A stretch of 64,000 nt of DNA from an uncultured Gemmatimonadales bacterium (GTDB lineage: Bacteria > Gemmatimonadota > Gemmatimonadetes > Gemmatimonadales > GWC2-71-9): positions 672,001-736,000 of the forward strand of contig CAWCVB010000002.1 of the NCBI GenBank assembly GCA_963798915.1, written 5' to 3'. Made by a program: the position numbers and the translations under genes. Below are positions 17,451 through 33,700 of this stretch, in pieces (position 1 is the first letter of the stretch; each line of letters opens with the position of its first letter). Under the pieces are notes generated by a model, which worked only from the letters and a program-made list of their open reading frames with translations, was not told the DNA's origin and made no database searches.

Positions 17451-18596
17451 ATGCGCGTAGCCATCTTCTCCGAAGTCTACTGGCCGATGGTCAGTGGCGT
17501 GGGGGTGACCCTCCGGCGCCTGGCCGACAGCCTGCTGGCGCGGGGCCACGCCGTGCGGGTCTATTCCGCATCCTACGCGCTGCCGCATTCCGGCGATCGG
17601 CCGGAAGTCTGCCGCTCCCCCAGCCGGCCCTTCTTTCTGTACCCCGACGTGCAATGGGCCTTCCCTCGTCATCGGACGCTGGTAGCCGATGTCGCGCGGT
17701 TTCAGCCGGACGTTGTTCACCTGGCCACCGAATTTGCCATGGGATACGCCGGCGCCAGGGTGGCGCGCCAGCTGGCCCTTCCGGTGGTGGCCTCCGCCCA
17801 TACCGATTACGAACAGTACGCCTCCCGTTATCGGGTGGACTGGGCGGTCCGCGCTGGTTGGCGCTATCTCCGCTGGTTTTACGGCCAGGCCGAAACCGTG
17901 CTTTGTCCGACGCGAATCTATGAGGAGCACCTGCATGCTCGAGGCGTGACCAACACCGGGATCTGGTCGCGCGGGGTGGACGCCCGCGTCTTTCATCCCG
18001 ACTTCCGCTCCAACGCGTTTCGCGGGGCGCTGGGCGCCCGCGAAGGCGACCTGGTGGTAACCTACATCGGGCGGATGGCGCGGGAAAAGAATCTGGAGCT
18101 GCTGCTCGAGGCGTGGACGCTGCTTCGGGCGAGGCATCCGTCGGCCCGGCTGGTGCTGGTGGGGGAGGGTCCCCTGGAGGAGCAGATCGCGCAACGCGCC
18201 CTCCCAGGTGTGCACCTCACCGGCCTCCTCACCGGCCGTGACCTCGCCGAAGCCTACGCCTCGGCCGACCTGTTCGCATTTCCCAGCGTCACCGAGACAT
18301 TCGGCAATGTCCTGCTCGAGGCAATGGCGTCAGGACTCCCGTCGGTGGTGGCAGCGGCCGGTGGCGTGCTGGAGTTCGCGCGCCACGGCCGGAATGCCTG
18401 GCTGGTCGAGCCGAGCTCGGCCGACGCCCTCGCTCACGGCATGGACCGCCTGCTGACCGACCATGAACTTCGCCACGGACTCGGCCGGGGCGCGCTCGCA
18501 ACGGCGGCGGCGCGGGGATGGGAAGGGGTGGATGACCAGCTTCTGCAGGACTACCAGGAGGTGGCGGAGCGCTTTGCCGCTCGGCAGGCGGCATAG
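17451..18596 (+). CDS. GT4 glycosyltransferase (MgtA/PimB-like)
   Basis: YWPMVSGVG, WSRGVD, GRMAREKN, ETFGNVLLEAMASG. Confidence 0.92.
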   Translation: MRVAIFSEVYWPMVSGVGVTLRRLADSLLARGHAVRVYSASYALPHSGDRPEVCRSPSRPFFLYPDVQWAFPRHRTLVADVARFQPDVVHLATEFAMGYAGARVARQLALPVVASAHTDYEQYASRYRVDWAVRAGWRYLRWFYGQAETVLCPTRIYEEHLHARGVTNTGIWSRGVDARVFHPDFRSNAFRGALGAREGDLVVTYIGRMAREKNLELLLEAWTLLRARHPSARLVLVGEGPLEEQIAQRALPGVHLTGLLTGRDLAEAYASADLFAFPSVTETFGNVLLEAMASGLPSVVAAAGGVLEFARHGRNAWLVEPSSADALAHGMDRLLTDHELRHGLGRGALATAAARGWEGVDDQLLQDYQEVAERFAARQAA

Positions 18597-19413
18597 CGGG
18601 CCCGCTCACTCGACGATCCCTCCGATCGATCCACTGCACGAAAAGCATACCCGCTGTCACCAGGTAGATGAGCCCGGCCGGTATCCACATGATCAGGCCC
18701 GCCACCTGCTGGTCCTGCATTGGTGTCAGGCCCCAGGCGGCAGTCGCCGCTGCATGCACGGCATACCACGGTGATCGCGAAAGCGTCAGCAGCGCACCGA
18801 GCAGCCCGCACTGGAGCCCGGCGGTAAAGACGTACAGGATCCCAAGCCCCCGGTCCATGCGGCGTCCGGGATGGCGAAAGAGCAGCCACCAGAAGGCGAA
18901 GCCGGTGCAGAGGAAGGATGCGTGCTCGAGCGCATGAATGGTCTCATGGCGAACTGCCGCATCGTAGGCGCGCGGCAGGTGCCAGCTCCAGAGCACGATG
19001 GCGCTGGCGACCCAGACGCTGGCCGGCCGCAGGGCCTGCCGGACCAGCGCGCGGAGCCCGTCGGTGGCTCGCCACCACCTGCCCAGCCAATGCCGCCATC
19101 GTCTCGGTAGTGCCCAGAGCGAGATATGAACTGGCGCTGCCATGACCAGGAGCGGCGGCGCCACCAGCAACAGCAGCAGGTGCTGCACCATGTGCGCGGA
19201 GAAGAGCACGTGACCCAGTTCGTCGAGGGGGGAGAGCAGCGCCAGAACCAGTACCATCAGTGCCGCCGCCGCACTGACGACGCGCCACATTGCCACCCCC
19301 CTGCCGCGGCCGGCCCGGTGCCAGAGACGCGTGATACCGGTGCTGTAGACGGCCGCGCCGCATGCGAGCCCGGCCATCACACCAGGATGGAAGTCCCAGC
19401 CGATCGTCAACAC
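18289..19413 (-). CDS. ctaG: Caa3-type cytochrome c oxidase assembly factor CtaG (3' end runs ~300 bp into the opposite gene; conserved part ends near 18620)
   Basis: LFSAHMVQHLLL, WSWHLP, HALEH, DQQVAGLIMWIP. Confidence 0.85.
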   Translation of the reverse strand: MLTIGWDFHPGVMAGLACGAAVYSTGITRLWHRAGRGRGVAMWRVVSAAAALMVLVLALLSPLDELGHVLFSAHMVQHLLLLLVAPPLLVMAAPVHISLWALPRRWRHWLGRWWRATDGLRALVRQALRPASVWVASAIVLWSWHLPRAYDAAVRHETIHALEHASFLCTGFAFWWLLFRHPGRRMDRGLGILYVFTAGLQCGLLGALLTLSRSPWYAVHAAATAAWGLTPMQDQQVAGLIMWIPAGLIYLVTAGMLFVQWIDRRDRRVSGPAMPPAERQSAPPPPGSPAEAGHPPLPIPAPPPLRARPGRVRGEVHGRSAGGPCRERGRRPSSARPARHSGRGARTPARHRPLPPPTGVLTPLPRAGHCRMSR

Positions 19414-19754
19414 AGCGGCGCCAGCACAAGGGCAATCGCAAAGAAGACAAGCCCGCCAAGGAACAGCAGGTTCAGGAATATTCCAGCTCGTGCCATGAAG
19501 CGGATGCGCCGGGCGTGCGGGCCATCAGCCTGACGGAAGGCACGGACAGACGCCCGGAAGGACCACGCGCTCGCCGCGGTCGCCGCGATCGTAATTCCGG
19601 CTAGCAGCCACCATCCCGGGCCGAACCGCGACATGCCTGCCGGTGATCGCAGGCACCGGGCGGCTCCGATGGAGACGACAAGCAACAGGTCGCCACTCCA
19701 GGCCGCCGCAGCACCGAATGCCGCCAGCCAGAGCGTGCGCGCGCTGGTACTCAC
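19407..19754 (-). CDS. Small 3-TM membrane protein of the oxidase operon
   Basis: GTG overlapping the coxIII stop; hydrophobic helices; ends ...LAPLC. Confidence 0.7.
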   Translation of the reverse strand: MSTSARTLWLAAFGAAAAWSGDLLLVVSIGAARCLRSPAGMSRFGPGWWLLAGITIAATAASAWSFRASVRAFRQADGPHARRIRFMARAGIFLNLLFLGGLVFFAIALVLAPLC

Positions 19755-20350
19755 AGGCCGAATCGCGGGCTCAGGTACAGTGACGTGAAGACCGCGATCC
19801 ACACGGCATCAACGAAATGCCAGTACAGCGCCGCATTGTGGAGGTAGTGTCGATGCGTCCGATCCAGCTGGCCTCGCAAGGCCATGGCGAGCACAAAGCC
19901 CAATACGAAGAGACCCACCAGTACGTGCGTCCCATGCAGCCCGGTGACGATGAAGAACACCGATCCGTATGCGTGGCTCGCAGGGGTAAAGGTCTGCTTG
20001 CTGTATTCGACACCCTGCAAGGCCAGGAAGGAGGCACCAAGGATGATCGTCGCGGTCAGGCCCAGCCATGACCGCTGCAGCTGCCCGCGATCCAGGTTCC
20101 GCTCCGCCCACCAGAGCGCAACGCTGCTGGCAAGCAGGAGCCCCGTGTTGGGGAGTGCAATGGTGAGTTCCGGCGGCCCGCCTGGGGGCCACGGTGTGGC
20201 GGACCGTGCCGCCAGGTAGAAGTAGCTGAAGAGCAGGTAGGCAAAGAGCGATGCTTCCGTCACGATCAGGAGCAGCATGCCCCACTGGCCCGGCGGGTGC
20301 GGCTCGGCGGCCTTTCCGACCGGCATGGAGGCGAGCGTGGAAGCCGTCAT
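19751..20350 (-). CDS. ctaE: Cytochrome c oxidase subunit III (short form)
   Basis: LIVTEASLF, YGSVFFIVTGLHGTHV, LYWHFVDAVW. Confidence 0.92.
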   Translation of the reverse strand: MTASTLASMPVGKAAEPHPPGQWGMLLLIVTEASLFAYLLFSYFYLAARSATPWPPGGPPELTIALPNTGLLLASSVALWWAERNLDRGQLQRSWLGLTATIILGASFLALQGVEYSKQTFTPASHAYGSVFFIVTGLHGTHVLVGLFVLGFVLAMALRGQLDRTHRHYLHNAALYWHFVDAVWIAVFTSLYLSPRFGL

Positions 20351-22275
20351 GGCGCGCGCTCCGGCGACATCCGCTCACCACGATCCTCGAGATGCACGGC
20401 ATGTGCTCCGGGCCAGAGCCACGCGCCGACACACACTGCGCTGGCCACCGCTCCAATCACCGCCAAGACCCATTGACTGAAGAGCAGTGCGTAGAACAGC
20501 ACCAGGAGGGCGACGGCCAGGTAGAACGGCCAGAGGCTGTCGCCTGGCATCGGGAGGATGGCAGTCGGCTCGGCGTCCAGGGCCGAGGTGCTGACCGCCT
20601 GGTGGCCATCGTCGAGCGCCGGGCCCTGGTCCAGGACCGTGCCGCCGCCGCCCAGGTCTGCCTCCCAGAGCGGATGACGGCTCGCCACGCGCGGGATGCA
20701 GGCAAAGTTGTAGGGCGGCGGCGGCGATGGCGTCGACCATTCCAGTGTGCCCGCGCCCCAGGGATTGCCCTCCGCGGGCACGCCATGATGCCGGCTTCGC
20801 CAGACATTCACCAGGAAGAGCAGGACGCCGAGGGCGAAGGCAAAGGATCCCGCGGTCACCACCAGGTTCCACGGACCCCACCCCAGCCCGGCGGGATAGG
20901 TGTAGATCCGGCGGGGCATGCCCAGGAAGCCCAGGATGTGCATGGGGAAGAAGCCCACGTTGAACCCGAGCAACATGAGCCAGAAACTCCACCGGCCCAG
21001 CCGCTCCGACATCATGCGGCCGGTCATCTTGGGGAACCAGTAGTGCACCGCAGCAAAGACCGGGAAGAGATTGATGCCGACCAGCACGTAGTGCAGGTGG
21101 GCAACCACGAAATACGAATCGGTGGCCTGCCAGTCGAACGGCACCGCCGCCGTCATGGAGCCGCTCACTCCCCCGATGACAAAGAGGATGATGAACCCCG
21201 CCAGGAAGAGGAACGGCGTCCGGAAGACGGGCCGGCCCTGCCAGATGGTCGCGATCCACGCGAATACCGACACCGCGCTGGGCACCGCGATCACCATGCT
21301 GGCGCCGCTGAAGAAGGAAAGTGAGACGGTCGAGAGTCCGGTGGCGAACATGTGGTGCACCCACACGCCAAAGCCAAGAATGCCGACGGCCACCGTGGCG
21401 AGGGCGACGTAGGCGTAACCGACAAGCGGCCGGCGACAGAACACCGGGATCATGTCCGATGCCATGCTCATGGCTGGCAGGACGATGATGTAGACCCAGG
21501 GATGCCCGAAGATCCAGAAGAGGTGCTGCCAGAGCAGCGGCTGTCCGCCATGCGCCGCGTCGTAGAAGTGGGTCCCGAAGTGGCGATCGAGGTACAGGAA
21601 CAGACAGGCGGCCGTGAGTGAGGGGAGCGCGAACAGGATCGAGACCGATGCCGTCACCGTGCCCCAGAGCAGGATGGGCAGGCGGTCGAGCGACATGCCC
21701 GGCGCCCGCATCTTGAAGAACGTGACCACGAAATTGATGGCGCCCACTGTCGTGGACATGCCGAGGAAGATCATCCCCAGGGCAAAGAAATCGATGTTGG
21801 GTCCCGACAGGTAGCTGGAAGAGGCGAGCGGCACATAGTTGAACCAGCCGGCATTCGGCGCCAGCCCCAGCGGGAAGCTGGTATAGAGAAAGATGCCGGC
21901 GGCCAGGAAGAGCCAGTAGCTCAGCGCATTCACCCTGGGGAAGGCCATGTCGCGCGCGCCGATCATCAGTGGCCAGAGGTAGTTGCTGAAGCCCGACAGG
22001 ATCGGCAGCGCAAACAGGAAGAGCATGGTGACGCCGTGCATCGTGAACAACTGGTCATACGCCGCCGGCGAGACGAGCGATGCGTCCGCATGGGCAAGCT
22101 GGATGCGCATCACCAGCGCCTCGAGTCCGCCCAGCACGAGGAAGGCAAAGGCCGTCACCAGGTAGCGAATGCCGATGACCTTGTGATCCACGCAGGCGAG
22201 TGCCCCGAGGGCCCCGGGCGGCGTTTCCCACAGGCGATGAAGCCGTTCGCGCGCGTCGAGGCACGGCGCCGTCAC
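20347..22275 (-). CDS. ctaD: Heme-copper oxidase subunit I, A-family scaffold with atypical proton channels
   Basis: TMHG, GHPWVY, WVHHMF, AHLHYV, GMPRR; GTG 22275 overlaps the coxII stop. Confidence 0.95.
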   Translation of the reverse strand: MTAPCLDARERLHRLWETPPGALGALACVDHKVIGIRYLVTAFAFLVLGGLEALVMRIQLAHADASLVSPAAYDQLFTMHGVTMLFLFALPILSGFSNYLWPLMIGARDMAFPRVNALSYWLFLAAGIFLYTSFPLGLAPNAGWFNYVPLASSSYLSGPNIDFFALGMIFLGMSTTVGAINFVVTFFKMRAPGMSLDRLPILLWGTVTASVSILFALPSLTAACLFLYLDRHFGTHFYDAAHGGQPLLWQHLFWIFGHPWVYIIVLPAMSMASDMIPVFCRRPLVGYAYVALATVAVGILGFGVWVHHMFATGLSTVSLSFFSGASMVIAVPSAVSVFAWIATIWQGRPVFRTPFLFLAGFIILFVIGGVSGSMTAAVPFDWQATDSYFVVAHLHYVLVGINLFPVFAAVHYWFPKMTGRMMSERLGRWSFWLMLLGFNVGFFPMHILGFLGMPRRIYTYPAGLGWGPWNLVVTAGSFAFALGVLLFLVNVWRSRHHGVPAEGNPWGAGTLEWSTPSPPPPYNFACIPRVASRHPLWEADLGGGGTVLDQGPALDDGHQAVSTSALDAEPTAILPMPGDSLWPFYLAVALLVLFYALLFSQWVLAVIGAVASAVCVGAWLWPGAHAVHLEDRGERMSPERAP

Positions 22276-23195
22276 CGCAGCCCCCTGAGGTATCGGTTTA
22301 CATCCGTCGTCTCTTGATCGGTGAGTCCGGTGCGGGGCATGAGCACTCCCGGCTTGATGGAATCGGGAGCCGAGAGCCACCGGTCGAGTGCCGCTGCCGT
22401 GTTTGGAAGGACGCCAGCGGCAATGGTGGCCCGGCTGGCCAGGTGAGTCAGGTCCGGACCTGCGTCGCCGTCAGCCGCAGAGCCTCGGATCGTGTGGCAC
22501 GCGGCGCAGCCTCGCTCGAAGAACAGGCTGTCCGGGGCCGTGCGCGCTGGCTCGCGCTGGCGGTGTTCCCAGCGGGCAAAGCCCGCCCCGTCATCCACGA
22601 CCACCGCGAGCCGCATGTTGGCGTGCGCCAGCCCGCAGAACTCCGCACACTGTCCATAAAGGCGCCCTGCCGAGTCGGCCTCGATCCACATCGTGTTGGT
22701 CTGGCCAGGAATGAGGTCGGTCTTCCCGGCGAGCGCCGGCACCCAGAAGCTGTGGATCACGTCGCCAGACAGGAGCTGGAGGCGCACCCGCATGCCGGCG
22801 GGGATATGGAGCTCGTTGGCGGTGACGAAGTCCGTCGCGCCGGACGGCGCCAGGTATTCGAGTTTCCACCAGTAGCGATAGCCGGTGACGCGAACGGTCA
22901 ACCCGGGATCGCGACCGCCACGGGCATAGTCGGTGAGCACGGTCAGGGTGTAGGCAAAGATGCCGAGGAGAATGACCACCGACACGCCAGCGCCGATCAC
23001 GATCCACCGACGTCCCGCGGCCTCGCCGTCGTCCGAGATGCCGACCGCGGGCACGCGGCGGCGGAACAGCGCCATCAGCAGGAGGCCCGCGACCACCAGT
23101 ACTACTACAGTGGCCGTGGCGGCGAGCACCCAGCTCAGCCGCCCGATGGCGAGCGAGGAAGCGCTGCCGTGCGACACGATCGTTGGCGCGCTCAT
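22272..23195 (-). CDS. ctaC: Cytochrome c oxidase subunit II with fused cytochrome c (caa3 type)
   Basis: DVIHSFWVP, CuA motif CAEFCGLAHANM, heme-c motif CAACH...MP. Confidence 0.93.
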   Translation of the reverse strand: MSAPTIVSHGSASSLAIGRLSWVLAATATVVVLVVAGLLLMALFRRRVPAVGISDDGEAAGRRWIVIGAGVSVVILLGIFAYTLTVLTDYARGGRDPGLTVRVTGYRYWWKLEYLAPSGATDFVTANELHIPAGMRVRLQLLSGDVIHSFWVPALAGKTDLIPGQTNTMWIEADSAGRLYGQCAEFCGLAHANMRLAVVVDDGAGFARWEHRQREPARTAPDSLFFERGCAACHTIRGSAADGDAGPDLTHLASRATIAAGVLPNTAAALDRWLSAPDSIKPGVLMPRTGLTDQETTDVNRYLRGLR

Positions 23196-24610
23196 GGCCC
23201 CTGGCCTGTCGGCTCACGCCGCCGTGTCACAAGAAAGGCTCGCAAGGTGTCGACCTGGCCTGCCGAGAGCACCTTGCCGAACGCCGGCATGTTGTGGCCG
23301 CCATTCTCGATCCATTGGGCGATCTGGGGCCCGGGCAGGCGATCACCCACATGGGTGAGGTCTGGGCCGCGGATTCCTCCCAGGCCAGCGATGCGATGGC
23401 AGTTCTCGCATCCCCGGCTGTGAAAGAGCACCGCACCGCGCTGCACGGCCACGTCGCTTGATGCGACAACGGAGTCCGGCAAGAGCGGGGCGTCGAAATG
23501 GGGTGACCACGGAGCCCTGACCCCGAGCCGCCAGAAGACGCCGACACCCGCGACGATGACCAGGACGGACACGAGCGCCCACGGCCGTCGCCGGACATGG
23601 CGTTCGCCCCGGTTGAAGAGAATGGGGAGCAGCAGCAGGACGAGGCCGCCCGTGAGCGGCAGGATCCAGATGAGGTACTCCTCGGACCCATGCGGCAGTA
23701 CCGCGAGGATGGCGAAGTACCAGAGCAGGTACCAGTCCGGCCGTGGCTGGGCATCAACCAGCGAAGGATTGGGCGGCTTGCCGAGAGGCTTGGGGCCAAT
23801 GACAATCGCAAGCCCGAGCACGATCAGCACCACCACGAGCGCAAAGACCACGTCGCGCCAGGCCGCGTCCGGCCAGTAGGGGACGCCGCGCTCGTTCAGG
23901 AGCTGCTGGTAGTCCGCCTGGTAGGTGGCAGGGTCCACCGGCCGGCCCGGCTCCGCGGGCTCCGAGATGCCATGCCGGATCACGAGATACAGGTGGAGCC
24001 CGATCAGCAGAATGATGAGCCCCGGTACGACGAAGACATGGTACGCAAAGAGGTGGCTCAGCGTCGCGGCGCCGATTCGCTCTCCCGCGAGGATGAAACG
24101 TGCAAGGGCGTGCCCGAAGAACGGCACCCGTCCCGCCTGTTCGGCGGCCACCACGGTGGACCAGACGCCGTCCTGGTCCCACCGAAGCACCTGACCACTG
24201 AATCCCATCACGATGGTCAGGCCGAGGAGCACGACGCCCGAAATCCAGTTGAGCTCACGCGGGAACTTGAACGATCCCGTCAGGAACACCCGGATCGCGT
24301 GCACGCCGATCAGCAGGATCATGGCGGACGCGCCAAAGTAGTGCAGGCCGCGGAGCACGCGCCCGAGCAGTGCCTGATGGGAGATGTACTGGAGGCTCTG
24401 GTAGGCATCCCCGGCTGCGGGGACATAGATGGTGGCCAGGGCGATGCCGGTCACAACCTGCAGCAGGAACGCCGCCAGCACGGCACTGCCGAAGACGTAT
24501 TTCCAGCGTGCGCCGGGCGGTACCTTGTGCCGAAGCACCGGAAGGATGTTCTCCCGGAACCCGATCCTGCGATCGAGCCAGTCGAGCAGGCGACGCCACG
24601 CGCCGCTCAT
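23192..24610 (-). CDS. qcrB: Cytochrome b of a bc complex with C-terminal fused cytochrome c
   Basis: RGLHYFGAS...VH, AYHVF...LHL, PDWY Qo motif, CENCH...MP. Confidence 0.9.
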   Translation of the reverse strand: MSGAWRRLLDWLDRRIGFRENILPVLRHKVPPGARWKYVFGSAVLAAFLLQVVTGIALATIYVPAAGDAYQSLQYISHQALLGRVLRGLHYFGASAMILLIGVHAIRVFLTGSFKFPRELNWISGVVLLGLTIVMGFSGQVLRWDQDGVWSTVVAAEQAGRVPFFGHALARFILAGERIGAATLSHLFAYHVFVVPGLIILLIGLHLYLVIRHGISEPAEPGRPVDPATYQADYQQLLNERGVPYWPDAAWRDVVFALVVVLIVLGLAIVIGPKPLGKPPNPSLVDAQPRPDWYLLWYFAILAVLPHGSEEYLIWILPLTGGLVLLLLPILFNRGERHVRRRPWALVSVLVIVAGVGVFWRLGVRAPWSPHFDAPLLPDSVVASSDVAVQRGAVLFHSRGCENCHRIAGLGGIRGPDLTHVGDRLPGPQIAQWIENGGHNMPAFGKVLSAGQVDTLRAFLVTRRREPTGQGP

Positions 24611-25122
24611 TCGATGATGGGAATCGGCCGAGTCCAGACCTCCACCTGGCCATTCCGGACTCGAACGGGATGATGTTTCAGCGGTTCAGGGGGAGGACCG
24701 GCGGCAACCTGGCCATCACGGTAGAAGACGCCACCGTGGCAGGGGCACATGAAGAGGTCGGCATCGGGCAGCCAGCGCACCGGGCAGCCGAGGTGCGTGC
24801 AATCCAGCGAGAAGGCGGTGAAGCTCCCGTCCTGTTCGCGGCGGAGCCAGGCGCCCATTTCGGATGCGACGCCGGACCAACGCTCGGGCGACGGGTCGCG
24901 GAAAGTCACTTCCACCGTGGCGCCGGCGGAAAAGCCGGCCTCCGGACCCACCGGGCGCCACACCCCGCGGCGTGCGCGCACGATCGGCCCCAGGAGCGTC
25001 GCCACTGGCGGCAGTGCCACCACTGCAGCGGCGAGCGCCCCCAGTGCCAGTGAGATCCGGGAAAGAAATGCACGCCGCTCGACCCCATCGTGGGTCTCGC
25101 GGCCTGGGGAATTCATGAGCAT
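24607..25122 (-). CDS. qcrA: Rieske iron-sulfur subunit
   Basis: Tat motif RRAFL, CTHLGC, CPCHGG. Confidence 0.92.
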   Translation of the reverse strand: MLMNSPGRETHDGVERRAFLSRISLALGALAAAVVALPPVATLLGPIVRARRGVWRPVGPEAGFSAGATVEVTFRDPSPERWSGVASEMGAWLRREQDGSFTAFSLDCTHLGCPVRWLPDADLFMCPCHGGVFYRDGQVAAGPPPEPLKHHPVRVRNGQVEVWTRPIPIIE

Positions 25123-25262
25123 GAACCTTCCCGTGGCCGCAACACGCGGCCCGCGGAGCCGTCAGTGCTCTGCGCACCCGGGAAACCTGCGAGTCATCCC
25201 TGCTGCAACGCCTGCATTTTCAACTTGAGCGTGCCCCTACAGCGATGCAAGGCCGCGCCGAA

Positions 25263-27068
25263 TCACCGCGCGGCTGGCGCCCGGGGTGTCCCGTCACGCG
25301 ACGGCTCCCGGCAGTGCTCGAGATCGAATGCGGTGTTGGTCAGCGCAATATGGGAGAGTGCCTGCGGGAAGTTGCCGCAGAGGCGGCCCTCAGCCGTGTC
25401 ATACTCCTCTGCCAGGAGGCCCACATCATTGGCCAGCCCGAGCACCCGCTCGAAGAGGGCAGTCGCGTCGTCGAGCCGCCCCATGAACGCAAGATCGCTC
25501 GCCATCCAGCAGCTGCAGGCAATGAAGGCGCCCTCGGCACCGGGAAGTCCGTCATCTGACGCCGAGGTGTCGTACCGCAGGATCAGCCCATCGCGCGACA
25601 GGTTGCGCTGGATGGCCTCGACGGTGCGCCGAACCCGTTCGTCGTCGTGCGGCAGGAAGCCGACCAGCGGCATGAGCAGGAGCGACGCGTCGAGCGCATC
25701 GGTGTCGTAGGCCTGAATGAAGGTGCCGCGTCGCCTGCTGTAGCCGCGCTGGCACACCTCGGCATGGATGGCGTCACGAAGCTGACGCCACCGGTCAAGC
25801 GGCGCGTTGGTGCCCAGTTGGGTCGCGATACGGATCGCGCGGTCGAACGCCACCCACGCCATGACCCGGGAGTGCGTGAAGTGCTGCCGCTCGCCGCGGA
25901 TCTCCCAGATGCCCTCGTCGGGCTCCTGCCAGACCTGCTCCAAGTGGCCGACCAGCCCGCAGATCAGCGCAAAGTCCAGTTCGCGCGAAGCGCCCAGTCC
26001 GCCCAGCGCATGGAAAAAGGCATCGGTGACCTCGCCATAGATGTCGAGCTGCAGCTGGCCAGCCGCGGCATTGCCGATGCGCACCGGCTTCGAGCCCGCG
26101 TATCCGGACAGCCAGTCGACCGTCCACTCGGGCACGTTCCGCCCGCCCCGAATATCGTAGAGGACCTGGACCTGATCGGGGCTGCCGGCCACGGCGCGGA
26201 GGAGCCAGCGCATCCAGTCACGCGCCTCCGCATGGCGGCCGCCATTGACCAGCGCGAGCAGCGTGAAGGTCGCATCGCGCAGCCAGCAGTAGCGGTAGTC
26301 CCAGTTGCGCGGACCGCCGAGCTGCTCCGGCAGAGACGTCGTGGGCGCCGCAACGATGCCGCCGGTAGGGAGGAATGTCAGCGCCTTGAGGGTGATGAGC
26401 GAGCGCTCCACCGCGGGACGATAGCGCCCCTGGTAGCTGCAGTTCTCGACCCACCGGGTCCAGAAGTCACGCGTCTCGGCGAGCGCCGCATCCGGATCAA
26501 TGGGGCGGGGCGTTTCCAGGTGAGAGGCGCCATAGGTCAGGACGAACGGTACGCACTCATCGGGGCCCACGGTGAATTCCGCATGGGTCCGCAGGTCCTC
26601 ACTGGTGAGCGGAACCGGGGTTCGCAGGACCACCAGGTCCGGGCCACCCACCGCTGTCCACCCTGACTCCTCGTGACGAACCCAGGGCACCAGGCTTCCG
26701 TAACTGAACCGCACGACCAGCTCCATGCGCATTGGCACCCGGCCGCGGATCCCGCGCACCAGGCGCACTACATCGGAGTTCTCGCCGCGGAGCGGCATGA
26801 AGTCCAGCAGCTGGACCGTGCCGTCGGGCGTCTCGAAGGTCGTTTCGAGTATGAGCGAGTGAGCTTCGTACCGGCGGTGGGTGGCGGTGATTTCGCCGGC
26901 GGGGCCCAGGCGCCAGAACCCGTTGTCGTCATCGCCGAGCAGGCGGCCAAAACAGGAGGTGGAACTGAAGTCGGGCCAGCAGAGCCAGTCGATGCTGCCG
27001 TCGCGCCGGACCAGCGCGGCGGTCTGGCAGTCACCGATCAGGGCATAATCTTCAAGTGGTGCGCTCAC
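25263..27068 (-). CDS. GH15 glycoside hydrolase (trehalase/glucoamylase-like)
   Basis: LEDYALIGD, AAPTTSLPE, RNWDYRYCWLRD, GIWEIRG, LLAEE, GNFPQALSH. Confidence 0.93.
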   Translation of the reverse strand: MSAPLEDYALIGDCQTAALVRRDGSIDWLCWPDFSSTSCFGRLLGDDDNGFWRLGPAGEITATHRRYEAHSLILETTFETPDGTVQLLDFMPLRGENSDVVRLVRGIRGRVPMRMELVVRFSYGSLVPWVRHEESGWTAVGGPDLVVLRTPVPLTSEDLRTHAEFTVGPDECVPFVLTYGASHLETPRPIDPDAALAETRDFWTRWVENCSYQGRYRPAVERSLITLKALTFLPTGGIVAAPTTSLPEQLGGPRNWDYRYCWLRDATFTLLALVNGGRHAEARDWMRWLLRAVAGSPDQVQVLYDIRGGRNVPEWTVDWLSGYAGSKPVRIGNAAAGQLQLDIYGEVTDAFFHALGGLGASRELDFALICGLVGHLEQVWQEPDEGIWEIRGERQHFTHSRVMAWVAFDRAIRIATQLGTNAPLDRWRQLRDAIHAEVCQRGYSRRRGTFIQAYDTDALDASLLLMPLVGFLPHDDERVRRTVEAIQRNLSRDGLILRYDTSASDDGLPGAEGAFIACSCWMASDLAFMGRLDDATALFERVLGLANDVGLLAEEYDTAEGRLCGNFPQALSHIALTNTAFDLEHCREPSRDGTPRAPAAR

Positions 27069-27180
27069 GTCGCCTCGCGTCATGCGTGAATGGTCGTGCC
27101 ATCACGAGGGAAGTCCCAGATCGAAACGGATGGCGGCGCCCGGCAGGCGGCGGCATGTGGCGGAGGACACGGTCACACCA

Positions 27181-27296: not shown

Positions 27297-27311
27297 TGGC
27301 ATGACTGCAGC
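27297..27311 (+). promoter_or_regulatory. sigma54-like -24/-12 promoter (TGGCATG-N4-CAGC)
   Basis: GG and GC at canonical spacing, ~30 bp before the ASRT ATG. Confidence 0.4.
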
Positions 27312-27342
27312 CGCGGCCGCCGGACGTGAAGGGATATTCCGC

Positions 27343-27726
27343 ATGGCAACCCCACCCGGTCGCACTCGGTGGGCCATCGCCGAGGGCTACATCCCCGGCT
27401 GGAGCACCGGTCCGGAGCCGCAGTTCACCAGCCACGAGACCGCCTGCATCCTCAACGCCGGGCCGACGCCGGCCCACGTCACGATCACGGTGTACTTCAG
27501 CGATCGCGACCCTGCAGGCCCCTATCGCCTGACCGTGCCGGCGGCGCGCACCCGGCACATTCGCTTCAACGATCTTACCGATCCCGAGCCGATTCCGCGG
27601 GACACCGACTACGCCAGCGTCCTCGAGTCGGACGTCCCGGTGGTGGTCCAGCACACCCGCCTTGATTCGCGACAGGCCGAGAACGCACTGCTCTCGACGG
27701 TTGCCTATGCCGACAGCCCGTCCTGA
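27343..27726 (+). CDS. ASRT (Anabaena sensory rhodopsin transducer) family protein
   Basis: GRTRWAIAEGYIP, SHETACILN, RTRHIRFNDL, PVVVQHTRLDSRQAENALLST. Confidence 0.9.
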   Translation: MATPPGRTRWAIAEGYIPGWSTGPEPQFTSHETACILNAGPTPAHVTITVYFSDRDPAGPYRLTVPAARTRHIRFNDLTDPEPIPRDTDYASVLESDVPVVVQHTRLDSRQAENALLSTVAYADSPS

Positions 27727-27801
27727 CTCGCCAGTCAGGCCGGGCCTTGAACTCCTGCCGTGTGCCGCCGGGGTGGTACGCCGCGGGGAAAGGTCACAGC
27801 A

Positions 27802-29631
27802 ATGACATCCACGATCGCCAGACTGCTCCACAGCGACACGACCAGCGATTTCCTCATCAAGCGGCTCCATGAATGGGGCGTGCGCCGGATCTATGGCTAC
27901 CCCGGCGACGGAATCAACGGGGTCATGGAAGCGCTCAATCGTCACCAGGACGAGATCCGGTTCATCCAGGCCCGCCATGAGGAGCTGGCCGCATTCATGG
28001 CCTGCGCGCACGCCAAGTTCACCGGCGAGGTGGGCGTGTGCGTCGCCACCTCGGGTCCGGGAGCCATACACCTGCTGAATGGCCTGTACGACGCGAAGAT
28101 GGACCACCAGCCGGTGGTGGCGATCGTGGGGCAGCAGGCCACCATCGGGCTGGGTGCCGACTTTCAGCAGGAAGTGGACCTGATCAGTCTCTTCAAGGAC
28201 GTGGCGCACGAGTACGTCCACATGGCCTCGGACCCGGCGCAGATCCGCCACCTGGTGGACCGCGCCATGCGAATCGCGAAGGCGGAACGCACCGTCACCT
28301 GCATCATCCTGCCCAACGACGTGCAGGAGATGGAGGCGGTGACGAGCCCGCCGCGTACGCACGGGGCGACCTTCTCGGGCGTGGGCTACACCCGGCCCCG
28401 CGTGGTGCCCTATGAGGATGATCTGCGGCGCGCAGCAGAGGTGCTCAACAGTGGTGAGAAGGTGGCCATGCTGGTGGGCGCTGGCGCCTTCGGTGCCGAG
28501 GCCGAGGTGATCGAGGCGGCCGAGCGCCTGGGAGCCGGCGTGGCCAAGGCGCTGCTCGGCAAGGCGGTGCTCCCGGATGACCTGCCCTTTGTCACCGGTG
28601 CCATTGGCCTGCTCGGCACGAAGCCGAGCTGGGACCTCATGATGGACTGCGACACCCTGTTCATGATCGGCACCGCCTTTCCCTATTCGGAGTTCCTGCC
28701 CCCGGAAGGGCAGGCGCGGGCGGTGCAGATCGACATCTCCCCCCGCATGCTCGGGCTGCGCTACCCCACCGAGGTGAATCTCTGCGGCGACAGCCGCGAG
28801 ACCCTCCGCGCCCTGCTCCCGATGCTCAGGCGGAAGGAAGACCGCACGTGGCGCGAGGGCATCGAAGCGGGCCTCAAGGATTGGTGGGAGGTGCTCGAGG
28901 CGCGTGCCATGAACAGCGCCGACCCGATCAATCCACAGCGGGTCTTCTGGGAGCTGTCCCCTCGGCTGCCGGACCGGTGCATTCTGACCTCGGATTCGGG
29001 CTCGTCCGCCAACTGGTTCGCGCGTGACATCAAGATTCGCGAGGGGATGATGGCCTCGCTCTCCGGCAACCTCGCGACCATGTGCCCGGGCGTGCCCTAT
29101 GCCCTCGCCGCAAAATTTGCGTATCCCGACCGGGTCGTGGTGGCGCTGGTGGGCGATGGCGCCATGCAGATGCTGGGCAACAACGGCCTCGTCACCATGG
29201 CCGAGCACTGGAAGGAATGGGAGGACCCCCGGCTCATCGTGCTGGTGCTCAACAACCAGGACCTGAACCAGGTCACCTGGGAGCAGCGCGTACTGTCGGG
29301 CGACCCGAAGTTCGAGGGCTCCCAGCACCTGCCCGATTTCCCCTTCGCCGCGTACGCCGACCTGCTGGGCCTGAGCAGCGTGCGTATGAACACGCCTGAC
29401 GACATCGGACCGGGCTGGGACGCTGCCCTGCGGGCCGACCGGCCAGTGGTGGTCGAGGCCCGGACCGATCCGGAAGTGCCACCGCTCCCCCCGCACATCA
29501 CCCTGAAGCAGGCGCGCGGCTTCAGTGAGGCCGTGGCCAAGGGCGATCCCGACTCCGGCCACATGATCAAGCAGGCGATGAAGGATGCGGTGGAGCAGTT
29601 CCTCCCGCACAAGCGGGGGCAGAAGGTGTGA
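27802..29631 (+). CDS. Thiamine-pyrophosphate enzyme, pyruvate oxidase/quinone-dependent pyruvate dehydrogenase-like
   Basis: YGYPGDGING, ARHEE, TSGPGAIHLLNGLYDA, GDGAMQM...NN. Confidence 0.92.
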   Translation: MTSTIARLLHSDTTSDFLIKRLHEWGVRRIYGYPGDGINGVMEALNRHQDEIRFIQARHEELAAFMACAHAKFTGEVGVCVATSGPGAIHLLNGLYDAKMDHQPVVAIVGQQATIGLGADFQQEVDLISLFKDVAHEYVHMASDPAQIRHLVDRAMRIAKAERTVTCIILPNDVQEMEAVTSPPRTHGATFSGVGYTRPRVVPYEDDLRRAAEVLNSGEKVAMLVGAGAFGAEAEVIEAAERLGAGVAKALLGKAVLPDDLPFVTGAIGLLGTKPSWDLMMDCDTLFMIGTAFPYSEFLPPEGQARAVQIDISPRMLGLRYPTEVNLCGDSRETLRALLPMLRRKEDRTWREGIEAGLKDWWEVLEARAMNSADPINPQRVFWELSPRLPDRCILTSDSGSSANWFARDIKIREGMMASLSGNLATMCPGVPYALAAKFAYPDRVVVALVGDGAMQMLGNNGLVTMAEHWKEWEDPRLIVLVLNNQDLNQVTWEQRVLSGDPKFEGSQHLPDFPFAAYADLLGLSSVRMNTPDDIGPGWDAALRADRPVVVEARTDPEVPPLPPHITLKQARGFSEAVAKGDPDSGHMIKQAMKDAVEQFLPHKRGQKV

Positions 29632-30738
29632 GTCCCGCTCCCTCGGCAGGTGACCCGCTCGTCCAGCGCGTCACCGTGAGCTGCTTCACCGTGCCAACGG
29701 ACGCACCGGAATCCGATGGTACCCTGACGTGGGAGTCCACCACGATCGTTGTCGTCGAAGTGACCGGGGGTGACACCGCCGGGCTCGGCTACACCTACGC
29801 GCACCCCGCGGCAGGACTCCTGATCCAGTCGACGCTGGCAGAGGTCGTGACGGGCCGGAGCGCGCTGGCGGTCCCCGCCGCCTGGCAAGCCATGGTGCAC
29901 GAGGTGCGCAACCTCGGTCGACCGGGGCTCTGCTCCATGGCCATCGCGGCGGTGGACAGCGCCCTCTGGGATCTCAAGGCCCGGTTGCTCGGCCTCCCGC
30001 TGGTCACGCTGCTGGGACAGATGCGCCAGGCCGTTCCCCTCTATGGCAGCGGGGGATTTACCTCCTACGATGAACAACGACTCCGCGACCAGCTCGGCAG
30101 CTGGGCGTCTGACGGATTCTCGATGGTCAAGATGAAGGTCGGGCGCGACCCGGCGGCCGATCCGGCGCGGGTGCGATCTGCGCGTGAAGCCATCGGGCCG
30201 TCGACAGCGCTGTTCGTTGACGCCAACGGTGCCTACCGGCGAAAGCAGGCTCTCGAGCTGGCGATGCACTTTGCCGAGAGCTGGGGTGAGCTGGTTCGAG
30301 GAGCCGGTGTCCTCCGATGACCTGGCCGGCCTCCACCTGCTGCGCGATGCCGGACCTTCCGGCATGGCCATCGCGGCAGGCGAATACGGGTGGGGATTGC
30401 CGTATTTCCGGCAGATGCTCGACGCCGGTGCCGTCGACATCCTGCAGGCCGATGCGACGCGCTGCGCGGGCATCACCGGGTTCATGCGGGTGGGTGCGCT
30501 CTGTGAGGCCTGCGGCATCCCGCTCTCGGCCCATACCGCACCGGCGCTGCATCTGCACCCGTGCTGCGCCCTGCCATCCATCATTCACCAGGAATTCTTT
30601 CATGATCACGTGCGCCTGGAGCGGATGCTGTTCGACGGCATCACCGAGCCTCGCGCCGGAACTCTCGCCCCCGACCTGTCCCGCCCCGGCATGGGGCTCG
30701 AGCTGCGACGCGCCGACGCCCGGCGCTTCGCGGCGTGA
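29628..30738 (+). CDS. Mandelate racemase/muconate lactonizing (enolase superfamily) enzyme; one frameshift near 30280
   Basis: ALWDLKAR, KMKVG, VDANG in ORF 29628..30320, continuing as WFEEP, AGEYG, SAHT in ORF 30184..30738. Confidence 0.88.
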
Positions 30739-30761
30739 CAGCGGGGAGGAAGGCTGTTCGC

Positions 30762-33700
30762 ATGGCCACTGCCAGCCGTCCTGATCTCTCTGCCCGGTCC
30801 CGTGCCACGCCCACCGCCGGGAATCTCAGGTCGCACGACGTGGATGCACGCCACCTCGCTTCGGCACTCCGGGAGGTCGTGAAGGGCGAGGTGCGCTTTG
30901 ATGACGGGAGTCGGGCGCTCTATGCGACGGATGGGTCGAATTACCGACAGGTGCCGATCGGCGTCGTGCTTCCCCGCGACAAGGAGGACGTGGTTGCCAC
31001 GGTCGGTCTCTGCCGGCGCTACGGTGCGCCGGTCCTCTCCCGAGGAGGCGGGACCAGCCTGGCAGGCCAGTGCTGCAACGTCGCGGTCGTGATGGACATG
31101 TCGAAGTACCTGAGCGGCGTGCTGGAAATTGACGCCGACCGTCGCCTTGCCCGGGTGCTGCCGGGCACGGTCCTCGACGACCTGCGCAAGGCCACGGCGC
31201 CATACGGCCTCACGTTCGGCCCCGACCCCGCCACGCACACCCACTGCACCCTGGGCGGGATGATCGGCAACGACTCCTGCGGCATCCACTCCGTCATGGC
31301 CGCGCGTGATGGCGACGGGGCGCGCGTCGCTGACAACATCGCTGAACTGGAGATTCTGACCTGGGACGGCGCGCGGTTCCGGGTGGGCCGGACGAGCGAT
31401 GACGAGCTGCGACCGCATCGTGGGAGGAGGGAGGACGTCGTGGTGCCATCTACGCGGGCCTTCGCGACCTCCGGGACCGCTACGCCGATCGCATCCGGGC
31501 TCGGTTTCCCGACATTCCGCGTCGAGTCTCGGGCTACAATCTCCCGCAGTTGTTGCCGGAGCATGGATTCGACGTGGCCCGGGCCCTGGTTGGTTCGGAG
31601 GGCACCTGCGTCACGGTGCTGGAGGCGACGGTCAACCTGATTCCCGCGCCAGCGGCCCGCTCACTCCTGGTGCTGGGCTACCCTGACGTCTTCGCGGCGG
31701 CGGACCACGTCCCCGCCATCATGGAGCACGGCCCGGTGGGTCTCGAAGGGCTGGACGACCGGCTCATCAGCTACATGCAGAAGAAGGGCCTGCACCCGAA
31801 GGACGTGAAGCTGCTTCCCGATGGCAGCGGCTGGCTGCTGGTCGAGTTTGACGGGGCGAGCAAGGCCGAGTCCGATGACAAGGCTCGTCAGGTAATGGCG
31901 GCGCTCAAGGAAAAGGGCGACGCGCCGAGCATGAAGCTGTTCGACGACCCGGCGGAGGAGGCGCAGGTCTGGGAGGTGCGTGAGTCGGGGCTTGGTGCGA
32001 CTGCCACACGTGCCCGGCGCTCCCCGCCAGCTGGCCGGGCTGGGAAGATTCCGCCGTGCCGCCCGAGCATGAGGGCGCCTACCTCCGAGACCTGCGGCAG
32101 CTGCTCGACAAGTACGACTACGACTGCGCACTCTACGGACACTTCGGCCAGGGATGCATCCACGTCCGCATCGACTTCGACCTGGAGACGCATGAGGGCA
32201 TCACCCGCTATCGGGCGTTCATCGATGACGCCGCCGATCTCGTGGTGCGCTATGGCGGCTCACTCTCCGGCGAGCATGGCGACGGCCAGGCGCGGGCCGC
32301 GCTGCTGCCCCGCATGTTCGGTGAGGAGCTCGTCGAGGCGTTCCGGGAGTTCAAGCGCGTTATGGGACCCCGAGGGCAAGATGAATCCCGGGCAAGGTGG
32401 TCGATCGCTATGCCCCCACCGCCAACCTGCGCCTCGGTACCGATCACCATCCCCGTCACCCCTTTACCCACTTCGCGTTTCCCGACGACCACGGCAGCTT
32501 CGCCGAGGCAACCAAGCGCTGTGTCGGCGTGGGCAAGTGCCGGCGGCGACGAAGGCGGGCACAATGTGTCCGAGCTACATGGCCACACGCGAGGAGGCGC
32601 ACTCCACTCGCGGCCGTGCCCGGCTCCTGTTCGAGTTTCTGCAGGGAGACGTCATCGGCCAGCGCGGGTGGCGTGACGAGAGTGTACGTGATGCGCTGGA
32701 TCTGTGCCTGGCCTGCAAGGGCTGCAAGGCCGACTGCCCCGTCAACGTGGACATGGCCACCTACAAGGCCGAATACCTGTCCCACTACTACGAGGGACGC
32801 CTGCGGCCGCGCCAGGCGTATGCGTTCGGGCTCATCATGTACTGGTCGCGCCTGGCAGGGCGTATGCCGCAAGCCTGGTCAATGTGCTGGCCCATGCGCC
32901 GGGATTGGCCCGGGTCGCCAAGTTCATGCGGGCGTCGCGCCCGAGCGCACCATCCCACGCTATGCGCCTGAGACCTTCAGGCGCTGGTTTCACGATCGCG
33001 AGCCTCGCGCGGTCGACGGACCGAAAGTGCTGCTGTGGCCCGACACCTTCAACAACTATTTCGGCCCGGGACGGCTCGCGCGGCCACCGAGGTACTCGAG
33101 TCGGCCGGCTATCCGGGTGGAGCTGCCGAGCGCGCTGGCTCTGCTGTGGCCGGCCCGCTATACGACTTCGGGATGCTCGGACGTGGCGCGCAAGCTGCTC
33201 CAGGGCATCCTGGACGCCCTGCGCGACGATATCCGGGCCGGTACGCCGCTGATCGTCCTGGAGCCGAGCTGTGCGGCCGGCCTTCCGGGACGAACTCATC
33301 AACTCTTTCCCCACGACGAAGATGCTCACCGACTGAGCCGCCAGACCCTGCTGCTGAGCGAATTTCTCGAGCGGGAGAAGCCGGGGTTCGGGCACTGCCG
33401 CACGTCGGGCGCACGGCGCTGGTGCACGGGCATTGCCACCAGAAGTCCATGATGGGCATGAGCGACGAGCAGGCCGTCCTGCGAGCGCCTCGGCGTCGAT
33501 ATCAGCATGCCTGACCCGGCTGCTGCGGCATGGCCGGGCGCATTCGGGTTCAGTCGGGGTGAGCACTACGATGTGTCGATCAAGTGCGGCGAGCGGCGTG
33601 CTGCTGCCGGCGGTCCGGGAGGCGGACAAGCGACACGATGATCATCGCCGACGGATTCAGCTGCCGGGAACAGATCGAGCAGACCACGGGTCGACGCATG

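Follow-up and report, generated by a model that had tools for sequence, protein, structure and literature searches.

The window analyzed in this study, i.e., the whole stretch of 64,000 nucleotides from an uncultured Gemmatimonadales bacterium (assembly GCA_963798915.1, contig CAWCVB010000002.1, positions 672,001 to 736,000), harbors 7 genes arranged head to tail on the minus strand (18289–25122), which encode a Rieske protein, a cytochrome b-c fusion, a caa3-type oxidase, and its assembly factor CtaG. Subunit I of this oxidase is a member of the A family of heme-copper oxidases that carries a Trp in place of the helix VI Glu of the D channel and a Ser in place of the helix VIII Lys of the K channel. 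Mutating either of these residues, Glu286 or Lys362, cripples model A-type enzymes, and most mechanistic models rest on both. The genes overlap by 4 bases at at least 4 junctions, and a simple scan revealed neither promoter-like sites nor an excess of terminator-like sites within the row. No RNA sequencing data set was listed for positions 19400–25130. The genes and the 2 codons in question are as follows:

24607–25122, minus strand: Rieske [2Fe-2S] protein, 171 amino acids (aa; PF00355, E 2.3e-10), with a 4-base overlap with the cytochrome b start
23192–24610, minus strand: cytochrome b with a C-terminal mono-heme cytochrome c fusion, 472 aa (PF00033, PF13631, PF00032, PF13442)
22272–23195, minus strand: oxidase subunit II with CuA and a fused cytochrome c (caa3 type), 307 aa (PF00116, PF00034)
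20347–22275, minus strand: oxidase subunit I, 642 aa, 14 predicted transmembrane (TM) helices (PF00115, 498.6 bits)
21496–21498, minus strand: TGG codon of Trp260 at the Glu286 position (codon read and alignment)
21268–21270, minus strand: codon of Ser336 at the Lys362 position (coordinate computed from the GTG start at 22275)
19751–20350, minus strand: oxidase subunit III, short form, 199 aa (PF00510, E 1.4e-33), with a 4-base overlap with the subunit I end
19407–19802, minus strand: small membrane open reading frame (ORF) of at most 131 aa between subunit III and CtaG (no Pfam or NCBIfam match)
18289–19413, minus strand: caa3-type CtaG assembly factor (PF09678, E 6.6e-59)

Subunit I probably begins with the GTG at 22275. 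This codon and the stop codon of subunit II overlap in the sequence GTGA (read directly), and the resulting product has 642 aa, the longest ORF being 677 aa. Plain residue numbers (e.g., Trp260) refer to this product of window positions 20347–22275, while Glu286, Lys362, Thr359, Asp132, Asn121/139/207, Ser299, and Glu101 of subunit II are what we take to be the Rhodobacter sphaeroides numbers, placed by motif alignment to Mycobacterium smegmatis CtaD (6adq_F) and to the canonical paralog of this genome.

In an HMMER alignment to M. smegmatis CtaD (E 9.7e-147), helix VI of the window protein reads FGHPWVY over FGHPEVY (fwifghpWvyii over fwffghpEvyii) and helix VIII reads IAVPSAVSVFAW over IAVPTGIKFFNW (iavpSAvSvfaw over iavpTGiKffnw), with Ser336 at the position of the K-channel Lys. 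Both replacements had been noted in a preliminary description of this DNA, and both are borne out by the alignment, the Trp also at the codon level. The residues listed there as retained were likewise all found: the 6 His ligands (tmHg, gHpwvY, vHHmf, aHlHy), the cross-link Tyr, DMAFPRVN, and GMPRR. However, a Thr-Asp at the "Mg site", which had been counted as a further oddity, is also present in M. smegmatis CtaD and, since the canonical paralog of the same genome has it as well, this argument is void.

Subunit I scores above the cutoff of the A-family CtaD/CoxA profile (TIGR02891, 697.5 bits versus 670.75) and keeps the A-family D-channel entrance (Asp109, Asn98, Asn116, and Asn181). It falls outside the A1 subtype, which has Glu in helix VI GHPEV where this protein has Trp260, and outside A2, with Phe-Gly rather than the Tyr-Ser of YSHPxV at positions 256–257; the helix VIII Lys and the Glu in TM helix 2 (TM2) of subunit II, which mark both subtypes, are missing from the window subunits. 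It does not belong to the B family (E 1e-8 to 1e-6 for ba3 chains versus 1e-147 for A-type chains), nor to any of the nitric oxide (NO) reductase families (cNOR, qNOR, eNOR, sNOR, gNOR, nNOR), as the cross-link Tyr and 3 CuB His ligands are found in 120 of 120 homologs. An AlphaFold2 model of subunit I (pLDDT 93.8, pTM 0.93) has 14 helices and superposes on A-type structures, with 2yev_A as the best Foldseek match (template modeling [TM] score 0.86) and a root-mean-square deviation of 1.3 to 1m56_A.

Subunit II combines a CuA site (H...CAEFCGLAHANM) with a fused c-type cytochrome (CAACH heme c site), as expected for a caa3 type; it matches TIGR02866 with 161.6 bits (cutoff 147.7), and its best match among solved structures is the Thermus caa3 chain 2yev_B (E 6.9e-47, residues 21–307). 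It reads GRRWIVI where the canonical subunit II of the genome has TLEIIWT, which confirms the preliminary suggestion that the K-channel entry Glu is missing. The LExxWT motif that contains this Glu was found in none of the 51 covered Trp-type subunit II rows, while the Cys, His, and Met ligands of CuA are kept in all aligned sequences. A C-x-Q-x-C version of the CuA motif, with Gln for the Glu of C-x-E-x-C, is found in Trp-type subunit II sequences from Burkholderiaceae and certain other lineages (including loci L006, L009, L013-L016, L019-L022, L038, L058, L070, L076, L077, L079, L081, L097, and L098). In canonical enzymes, the Glu of this motif ligates the Mg/Mn site, which may thus be absent there; the window subunit II retains the Glu.

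Conservation and phylogeny of the Trp type

Residues were counted by alignment column in the 120 best matches from a collection of 5.8 billion proteins. The helix VI Glu position is occupied by Trp in 118 of these homologs and by Glu and Leu in 1 each; Leu is also found in P0072, which lies inside the Trp clade. At the Lys position, Ala (71), Ser (35), Gly (9), Thr (4), and Gln (1) were found, while the Thr359 position holds Ser in 119 homologs and Thr in 1. The 6 His ligands, Tyr288, Ser299, and Arg481/482 are present in every sequence that covers them, and the D-channel entrance is kept nearly without exception (Asp132 in 110/111, Asn121 in 110/111, and Asn139 in 112/112 covered sequences). 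Furthermore, Asn207 is conserved in 152/152 Trp-type sequences of a pooled set. This set was not de-replicated and comprises 154 sequences that were selected for containing HPWV and for being longer than 600 aa, so that its Trp frequency (154/154) is given by construction. Among 150 representatives of 50%-identity clusters, the Trp is clear in 13, and 1 further case is ambiguous.

A scan of 1 genome per species yielded 596 relatives; of the best 80 loci, in which residue states were counted, 52 are of the Trp type. Carriers include the cultured Paraburkholderia species P. acidipaludis, P. phytofirmans, P. graminis, and P. tagetis, as well as Caballeronia, Trinickia, Burkholderia pseudomultivorans, Nitrosospira multiformis, Methylocystis sp. 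JAN1, Massilia horti, Rhodanobacter, and Paralcaligenes. In a plasmid collection, 22 records match at 60–80% identity, and both records that were inspected, megaplasmids of Burkholderia multivorans and Burkholderia cenocepacia, encode GHPWVY and PSAVAVFAW. The preliminary description would have been undone by substitutions unique to this assembly; clearly, they reach far beyond it. For 12 Trp-type gene pairs, the Nei-Gojobori ratio of nonsynonymous to synonymous substitution rates (dN/dS) is 0.083–0.335. The 3 pairs that include the window gene are near saturation of dS, because even the nearest DNA is only 64–67% identical at the protein level over aligned codons, and the closer Paraburkholderia pairs are more informative.

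Within the Gemmatimonadota, the gene is patchy: 28 of 401 genomes match at E ≤ 1e-230 (58–69% identity; the Trp type is assigned here by score alone), and these matches are confined to 2 families (14/166 and 13/93 genomes). The Trp motif itself was seen in 2 of 30 close relatives and not once in the 9 further genomes of the genus to which the window belongs (69–100% complete). Two loci from this genus (L088 and L089, genomes G006 and G008) lack the Trp type and encode GHPEVY together with PTGVQFFCW (Lys to Gln), Glu at Asn207, and Leu at Asn121.

Phylogenetic trees were calculated with FastTree, without bootstraps and with an untested root. Among 97 full-length representatives, the Trp-type rows form 1 clade (Shimodaira–Hasegawa-like support 99), the sister of which is a clade of 24 rows; both together (support 100) are separated from 69 canonical A1/A2 rows. 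In a second tree of 79 locus-derived sequences, all 51 Trp-type rows again fall into 1 clade (support 94), which is consistent with a single Glu-to-Trp change, and this clade is sister to 23 Actinomycetota rows (support 98). The Trp clade spans 4 phyla: Gemmatimonadota and 1 Acidobacteriota row are basal and paraphyletic within it, while the 45 Pseudomonadota rows form 1 nested clade (support 99) in which classes are mixed. Judged by these sequences, the Trp type is a distinct, widespread sub-clade of the A family.

In the sister clade, the helix VI position is still Glu or Asp. Gln replaces the Lys and Glu replaces Asn207 in most of its rows, and the Asn121 position is occupied by a residue other than Asn, mostly hydrophobic, in nearly all of them. 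One sister-clade locus from an Actinomycetota metagenome-assembled genome (MAG; L041) has Leu at the helix VI Glu position, along with Glu294 and Gln at the Lys position; this would be a second, independent loss of the helix VI Glu.

The comparison of 154 Trp-type, 15 sister-clade, and 32 canonical sequences revealed a number of residues that are fixed in the Trp type and not in canonical enzymes:

Helix I: Arg37, Thr41
Helix II: Thr83, Ser94, Ser97
Helix IV: Thr175, Thr176
Helix V: Thr206, Thr208, Ser210
Helix VII: Thr294 (154/154), Thr297 (147/154)
Helix VIII: Ser333, Ala334
Helix IX: Thr375 (154/154)
Helix X: Ile401-Asn402 (Asn in 153/154)

The comparison of Trp-type with canonical sequences yielded no new conserved Asp or Glu in any TM helix, including a relocated Glu in helix II, and the helix VI Glu has therefore not simply moved. 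According to the helix limits of the AlphaFold2 model, Thr294 and Thr297 lie in the half of helix VII facing the negative (N) side of the membrane, 13 and 10 residues ahead of the CuB ligand His307, Thr375 lies at the end of helix IX on the positive (P) side, and Asn402 is located in the middle of helix X, 7 residues past the heme a ligand. Position 294 is Glu in 15 actinobacterial sister loci, against a Lys-to-Gln background; its occurrence in a clade that keeps the helix VI Glu or Asp and has lost the Lys suggests that position 294 lines the K pathway.

Genome context and gene neighborhoods

The assembly (3.3 Mb, 84.8% complete) encodes 2 further oxidases and a heme A synthase. A canonical caa3 oxidase with GHPEVY, IAIPTGVKIFNW, and a subunit II containing LEIIWT is located on the same contig approximately 40 kb away, and a B-type subunit I (FTGHAIVY, 569 aa) is located on another contig (G000:C10:37399-38748, L003). 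Because canonical A1 and B-type oxidases are encoded alongside, the Trp-type enzyme would be an accessory one. Apart from the cytochrome b of its operon (match at 23981–24523; G000:C2:695981-696523), no PF00033 match was found in the assembly, which is 84.8% complete; thus, the bc complex looks dedicated to the Trp-type oxidase. No alternative complex III genes were found within the 15.7 kb upstream of the canonical caa3 genes.

At Trp-type loci, a conserved core comprises the subunit II-cytochrome c, subunit I (sometimes fused to subunit III), subunit III, a small ORF, and CtaG, which is often fused to a cytochrome c. The small membrane ORF of the window shares 30% identity over 105 aa with a hypothetical gene of B. 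multivorans at the same position. In clusters of the methanol dehydrogenase XoxF3, a small conserved hypothetical gene of about 110–130 aa is likewise described between CoxIII and CtaG in the available part of the report (PMC10875860). A bc complex adjoins the oxidase in the window and in only 2 other Trp-type loci (L075 and L012), as well as in 16 sister-clade loci. In Methylocystis sp. JAN1 (L035, 2594–5972), genes for a pyrroloquinoline quinone (PQQ) dehydrogenase, an SBP_bac_3 binding protein, and a cytochrome c, reminiscent of xoxFJG, lie directly upstream of the Trp-type oxidase, which appears to be wired to a periplasmic dehydrogenase and not to a bc complex.

Upstream of the operon, 2 further genes could be assigned to families:

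25263–27083, minus strand: glycoside hydrolase family 15 (GH15) protein, trehalase-like (NF041084, 393.6 bits, under the cutoff of 820)
27760–29631, plus strand: protein requiring thiamine pyrophosphate (TPP), related to pyruvate oxidase (NF006129, 1043 bits versus a cutoff of 724)

The recurrence of these neighbors was determined by tblastn over 93 loci. Homologs of the TPP enzyme (55–66% identity) were found in 13 of them, 10 from Burkholderiaceae and 3 from Actinomycetota, so that this gene recurs beside the oxidase lineage in 3 phyla. GH15 homologs were found in 6/93 loci and lie beside Trp-type oxidases in Burkholderiaceae, being annotated as such in B. multivorans. On the plus strand, a 230-aa ORF of the enolase superfamily follows (29628–30320; best NCBIfam match L-talarate/galactarate dehydratase, under the cutoff), and homologs of it occur in 8/93 loci, beside the TPP gene. 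Its match ends at about position 219 of a 371-position profile, and a second ORF begins in another frame at the end of the first (30317–30784, plus strand); the break within 29628–30784 may represent a frameshift or an assembly error. A 141-aa ORF (27301–27726, plus strand) that separates the GH15 and TPP genes matches neither Pfam nor NCBIfam; in tblastn, it was recovered at 52–66% identity close to the Trp-type oxidases of a Nitrosospira MAG (L011) and a Castellaniella MAG (L082).

On the megaplasmids of B. cenocepacia and B. multivorans, the gene order is subunit II-cytochrome c, fused subunit I and III, small ORF, and cytochrome c. The same order is described for caaBAC on megaplasmid pc3 of B. 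cenocepacia H111, which, as far as the available text of that report goes, shows 11-fold induction on minimal agar and no expression in liquid, rich, or low-O2 culture (PMC11742914). The caaBAC product is probably the same enzyme type, and the Trp-type oxidase, as an accessory branch, may have a role in starvation or surface growth.

Proton delivery, pumping, and alternative readings

Building on the observed conservation, clade structure, operon structure, and intact redox ligands, we infer O2 reduction, proton routes, pumping stoichiometry, and physiological role from the sequences. On balance, we hold it to be probable that the Trp-type oxidase is a working, selectively maintained accessory caa3-type cytochrome c:O2 oxidoreductase with rebuilt proton delivery through Ser/Thr hydroxyls and water, and that it pumps poorly or not at all. 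Because the odd residues are conserved, the view of the preliminary description that this is a mechanistically different oxidase gains support. Its further suggestions of a non-pumping enzyme, an electron sink, or NO reactivity gained none from these data.

Protons for water formation would reach the active site along paths lined only by hydroxyls of Ser and Thr and by water. One such route could be a hydrated pore at the site of the former Lys side chain, flanked by Thr294 and Thr297 of helix VII and further lined by Ser333, Ser273, and Tyr262. Such a pore would be comparable to the channel of B-type oxidases, which has no Lys. The lower D channel, being retained, may also play a part. The Lys position is small but chemically variable (the lone Gln excepted), which would fit selection for space that water can occupy rather than for a particular chemical group. 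A Trp at the Glu position would abolish the canonical branch point of pumped and chemical protons. Without this Glu "valve", the canonical pump cycle could not run, and a low or zero number of pumped protons per electron (H+/e-) would therefore be expected. In this genome, the oxidase and its own Rieske/cytochrome b-c complex would form a self-contained branch from quinol to O2.

Several points weigh against this reading. A model in which protons use the K pore only does not readily explain why the lower D channel is so strictly conserved, because B-type oxidases do not conserve those residues, and where the D channel leads once its Glu is a Trp is left unexplained by the K-pore model. The window subunit I itself has Val and not Thr at position 297. 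Moreover, the predicted orientations, i.e., Thr294 and Thr297 facing the K pore, Thr375 near the P side, and Asn402 below the heme a ligand, derive from helix boundaries and helical periodicity. Since acidic residues remain in the loop immediately preceding TM2 of subunit II, this loop may also provide an alternative K-channel entrance. With respect to the physiological role, the H111 caa oxidase is linked to the Trp type by matching architecture in other strains of B. cenocepacia and in B. multivorans, which makes the identity probable, and the literature search revealed no figures on activity, heme content, or expression for any Trp-type enzyme.

More tentatively, the Trp type may constitute a phylum-spanning A-type lineage that reduces O2 without an ionizable relay residue in either N-side channel. 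Such a lineage might still pump, or it might be the first A-type enzyme that is non-pumping by design and kept for starvation or surface growth, this branch having been recruited to at least 3 electron inputs (a dedicated bc complex, XoxF-type dehydrogenases, and pyruvate-oxidase-like TPP islands). If this proves correct and the enzyme still pumps, the helix VI Glu "valve" would be dispensable even without the Tyr-Ser of A2 enzymes.

We regard it as unlikely that the Trp type is a fully coupled pump, in which the D channel would still carry pumped and chemical protons, with Thr175/176, Thr83, Ser94/97, and water replacing the Glu in a manner comparable to the A2 Tyr-Ser. The extra Ser and Thr fixed in helices II, IV, and V could serve this purpose, and the entrance and middle of the D channel are kept across more than 150 sequences, which is the main argument for a working D channel. 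A2-type enzymes such as Rhodothermus marinus caa3, cited in the available part of PMC11214002, further illustrate that the Glu is replaceable. However, positions 256–257 are Phe-Gly or Phe-Ala instead of Tyr-Ser, no ionizable residue was gained in a TM helix, and Trp is bulky and unable to carry a proton. The K channel, which canonical enzymes need for the reductive half-cycle, is dismantled too.

With a similarly low probability, the enzyme is a non- or weakly electrogenic O2 scavenger or electron sink that takes its chemical protons from the periplasm, as cNOR does, so that energy would be conserved only by the adjoining bc complex. This would account for the loss of the key residues of both N-side pathways, it agrees with the coupling in this genome to a bc complex that itself conserves energy, and a precedent is provided by cNOR and qNOR, in which conserved N-side channels are missing according to the available text of PMC11214002. 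Then again, the conservation of Asp132, Asn139, Asn121, Asn207, and Ser299 on the N side would be purposeless, and no periplasmic proton path was identified in the protein.

That NO or another oxidant, rather than O2, is the physiological substrate seems very improbable. In its favor, heme-copper oxygen reductases generally show some NO reductase activity, as stated in the available part of PMC11214002. However, the active site is that of an O2 reductase, with 3 CuB His ligands and the cross-link Tyr, and FeB-type Glu ligands are absent. The cross-link Tyr argues against an NO reductase, as it is treated as needed for O2 reduction and absent from NO reductases by Murali et al. 2024 (PMC11214002, available part). 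Furthermore, both the tree and Foldseek place the clade inside the A family, and no denitrification genes were seen in the flanks examined. Finally, an inactive relic or an assembly artifact, for which only the loss of 2 residues essential in model enzymes speaks, has a next to negligible probability and is refuted as far as sequence analysis can do so, given that the same residues are fixed in 1 clade of 4 phyla, dN/dS is low (0.08–0.34), all ligands are intact, and the row of 7 genes is unbroken with its overlapping junctions, in line with the earlier argument against decay.

A large clade under purifying selection with Trp and Ala/Ser at the Glu and Lys positions and no known substitute motif represents a natural experiment on proton delivery and gating. 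Since the Trp type occurs in culturable and genetically tractable bacteria (Paraburkholderia, Caballeronia, Methylocystis, and Nitrosospira), its activity, O2 affinity, H+/e- ratio, and structure are measurable. Annotation pipelines describe such genes as ordinary ctaD, because they score above the TIGR02891 cutoff, and genome-based estimates of respiratory efficiency in soil bacteria may therefore be too high.

Comparison with known oxidases

The closest characterized enzymes are the A1-type caa3/aa3 oxidases (Thermus 2YEV, M. smegmatis CtaD 6ADQ, Paracoccus denitrificans 1AR1, and R. sphaeroides 1M56), which match subunit I with E 1e-147 to 1e-112, 38–46% identity, and template modeling scores of 0.75–0.92. 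Common features are the 6 His ligands, the cross-link Tyr, the D-channel entrance, GMPRR, CuA, a cytochrome c fused to subunit II, subunit III, and a caa3-type CtaG. In contrast to A1 enzymes, the Trp type has Trp for the helix VI Glu, Ser, Ala, or Gly for the helix VIII Lys, and Ser for the Thr of the same helix, it has lost the K-entrance Glu of subunit II, and helices II, IV, V, VII, IX, and X have acquired fixed Thr, Ser, and Asn residues. With A2 enzymes (YSHPxV, R. marinus caa3), it shares the lack of a helix VI Glu and the retained D-channel entrance; however, Tyr-Ser is replaced by Phe-Gly, and A2 enzymes retain the K-channel Lys that the Trp clade lacks. While it is already in print that Tyr-Ser takes the place of the Glu in A2 enzymes, we found no paper on Trp at this position, in a search outside which most subscription journals lay, so that an earlier mention is possible.

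The loss of the K channel in the A family has already been published for Fe-oxidizing acidophiles, Thioclava, some Archaea, and others (PMC8239418; 10.1101/2020.03.01.968255). As described in the available parts of these reports by Degli Esposti et al., the enzymes resemble the Trp type in that the D-channel entrance is preserved but both the Lys of helix VIII and the Glu of subunit II are gone. They differ in being classed as A1 or A2, and the supplement reports no significant change in the D channel (PMC8239418). In Table S3 of the same paper, no row with a lost Lys comes from a Trp-type genus, and the rows for Burkholderia, Methylocystis, and Gemmatimonadetes all keep the Lys.

The Lys-to-Gln sister clade, actinobacterial and other, shares with the Trp type its position as sister in 2 trees, the same operon core, the loss of the subunit II Glu, and often adjoining genes for a bc complex and a TPP enzyme. 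It differs by a helix VI Glu or Asp, by Gln at the Lys position, and often by Glu294 or a buried Glu at positions 94 and 181. As for the gene clusters in the literature, the arrangement in Methylocystis matches the association of Cox and CtaG genes with XoxF3 methanol dehydrogenase clusters, as reported in the available text of PMC10875860, and the Cox module is probably the same enzyme type. In contrast to that module, the genome studied here has no PQQ dehydrogenase match, and a bc complex is coupled to the oxidase instead. Neither the XoxF3 report (PMC10875860) nor that on caaBAC of H111 (PMC11742914) mentions the channel residues in the parts available.

A mechanistic likeness may exist to the B-family ba3 oxidases (Thermus 1EHK), in which the Glu position is hydrophobic and Ser, Thr, and Tyr line a channel that lacks the helix VIII Lys. 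Of these, Ser309 is named in the available part of PMC11214002. However, B-type enzymes are without the D-channel residues that the Trp type conserves, the B-type gene of this genome is a separate one, and the Trp type is not itself a member of the B family.

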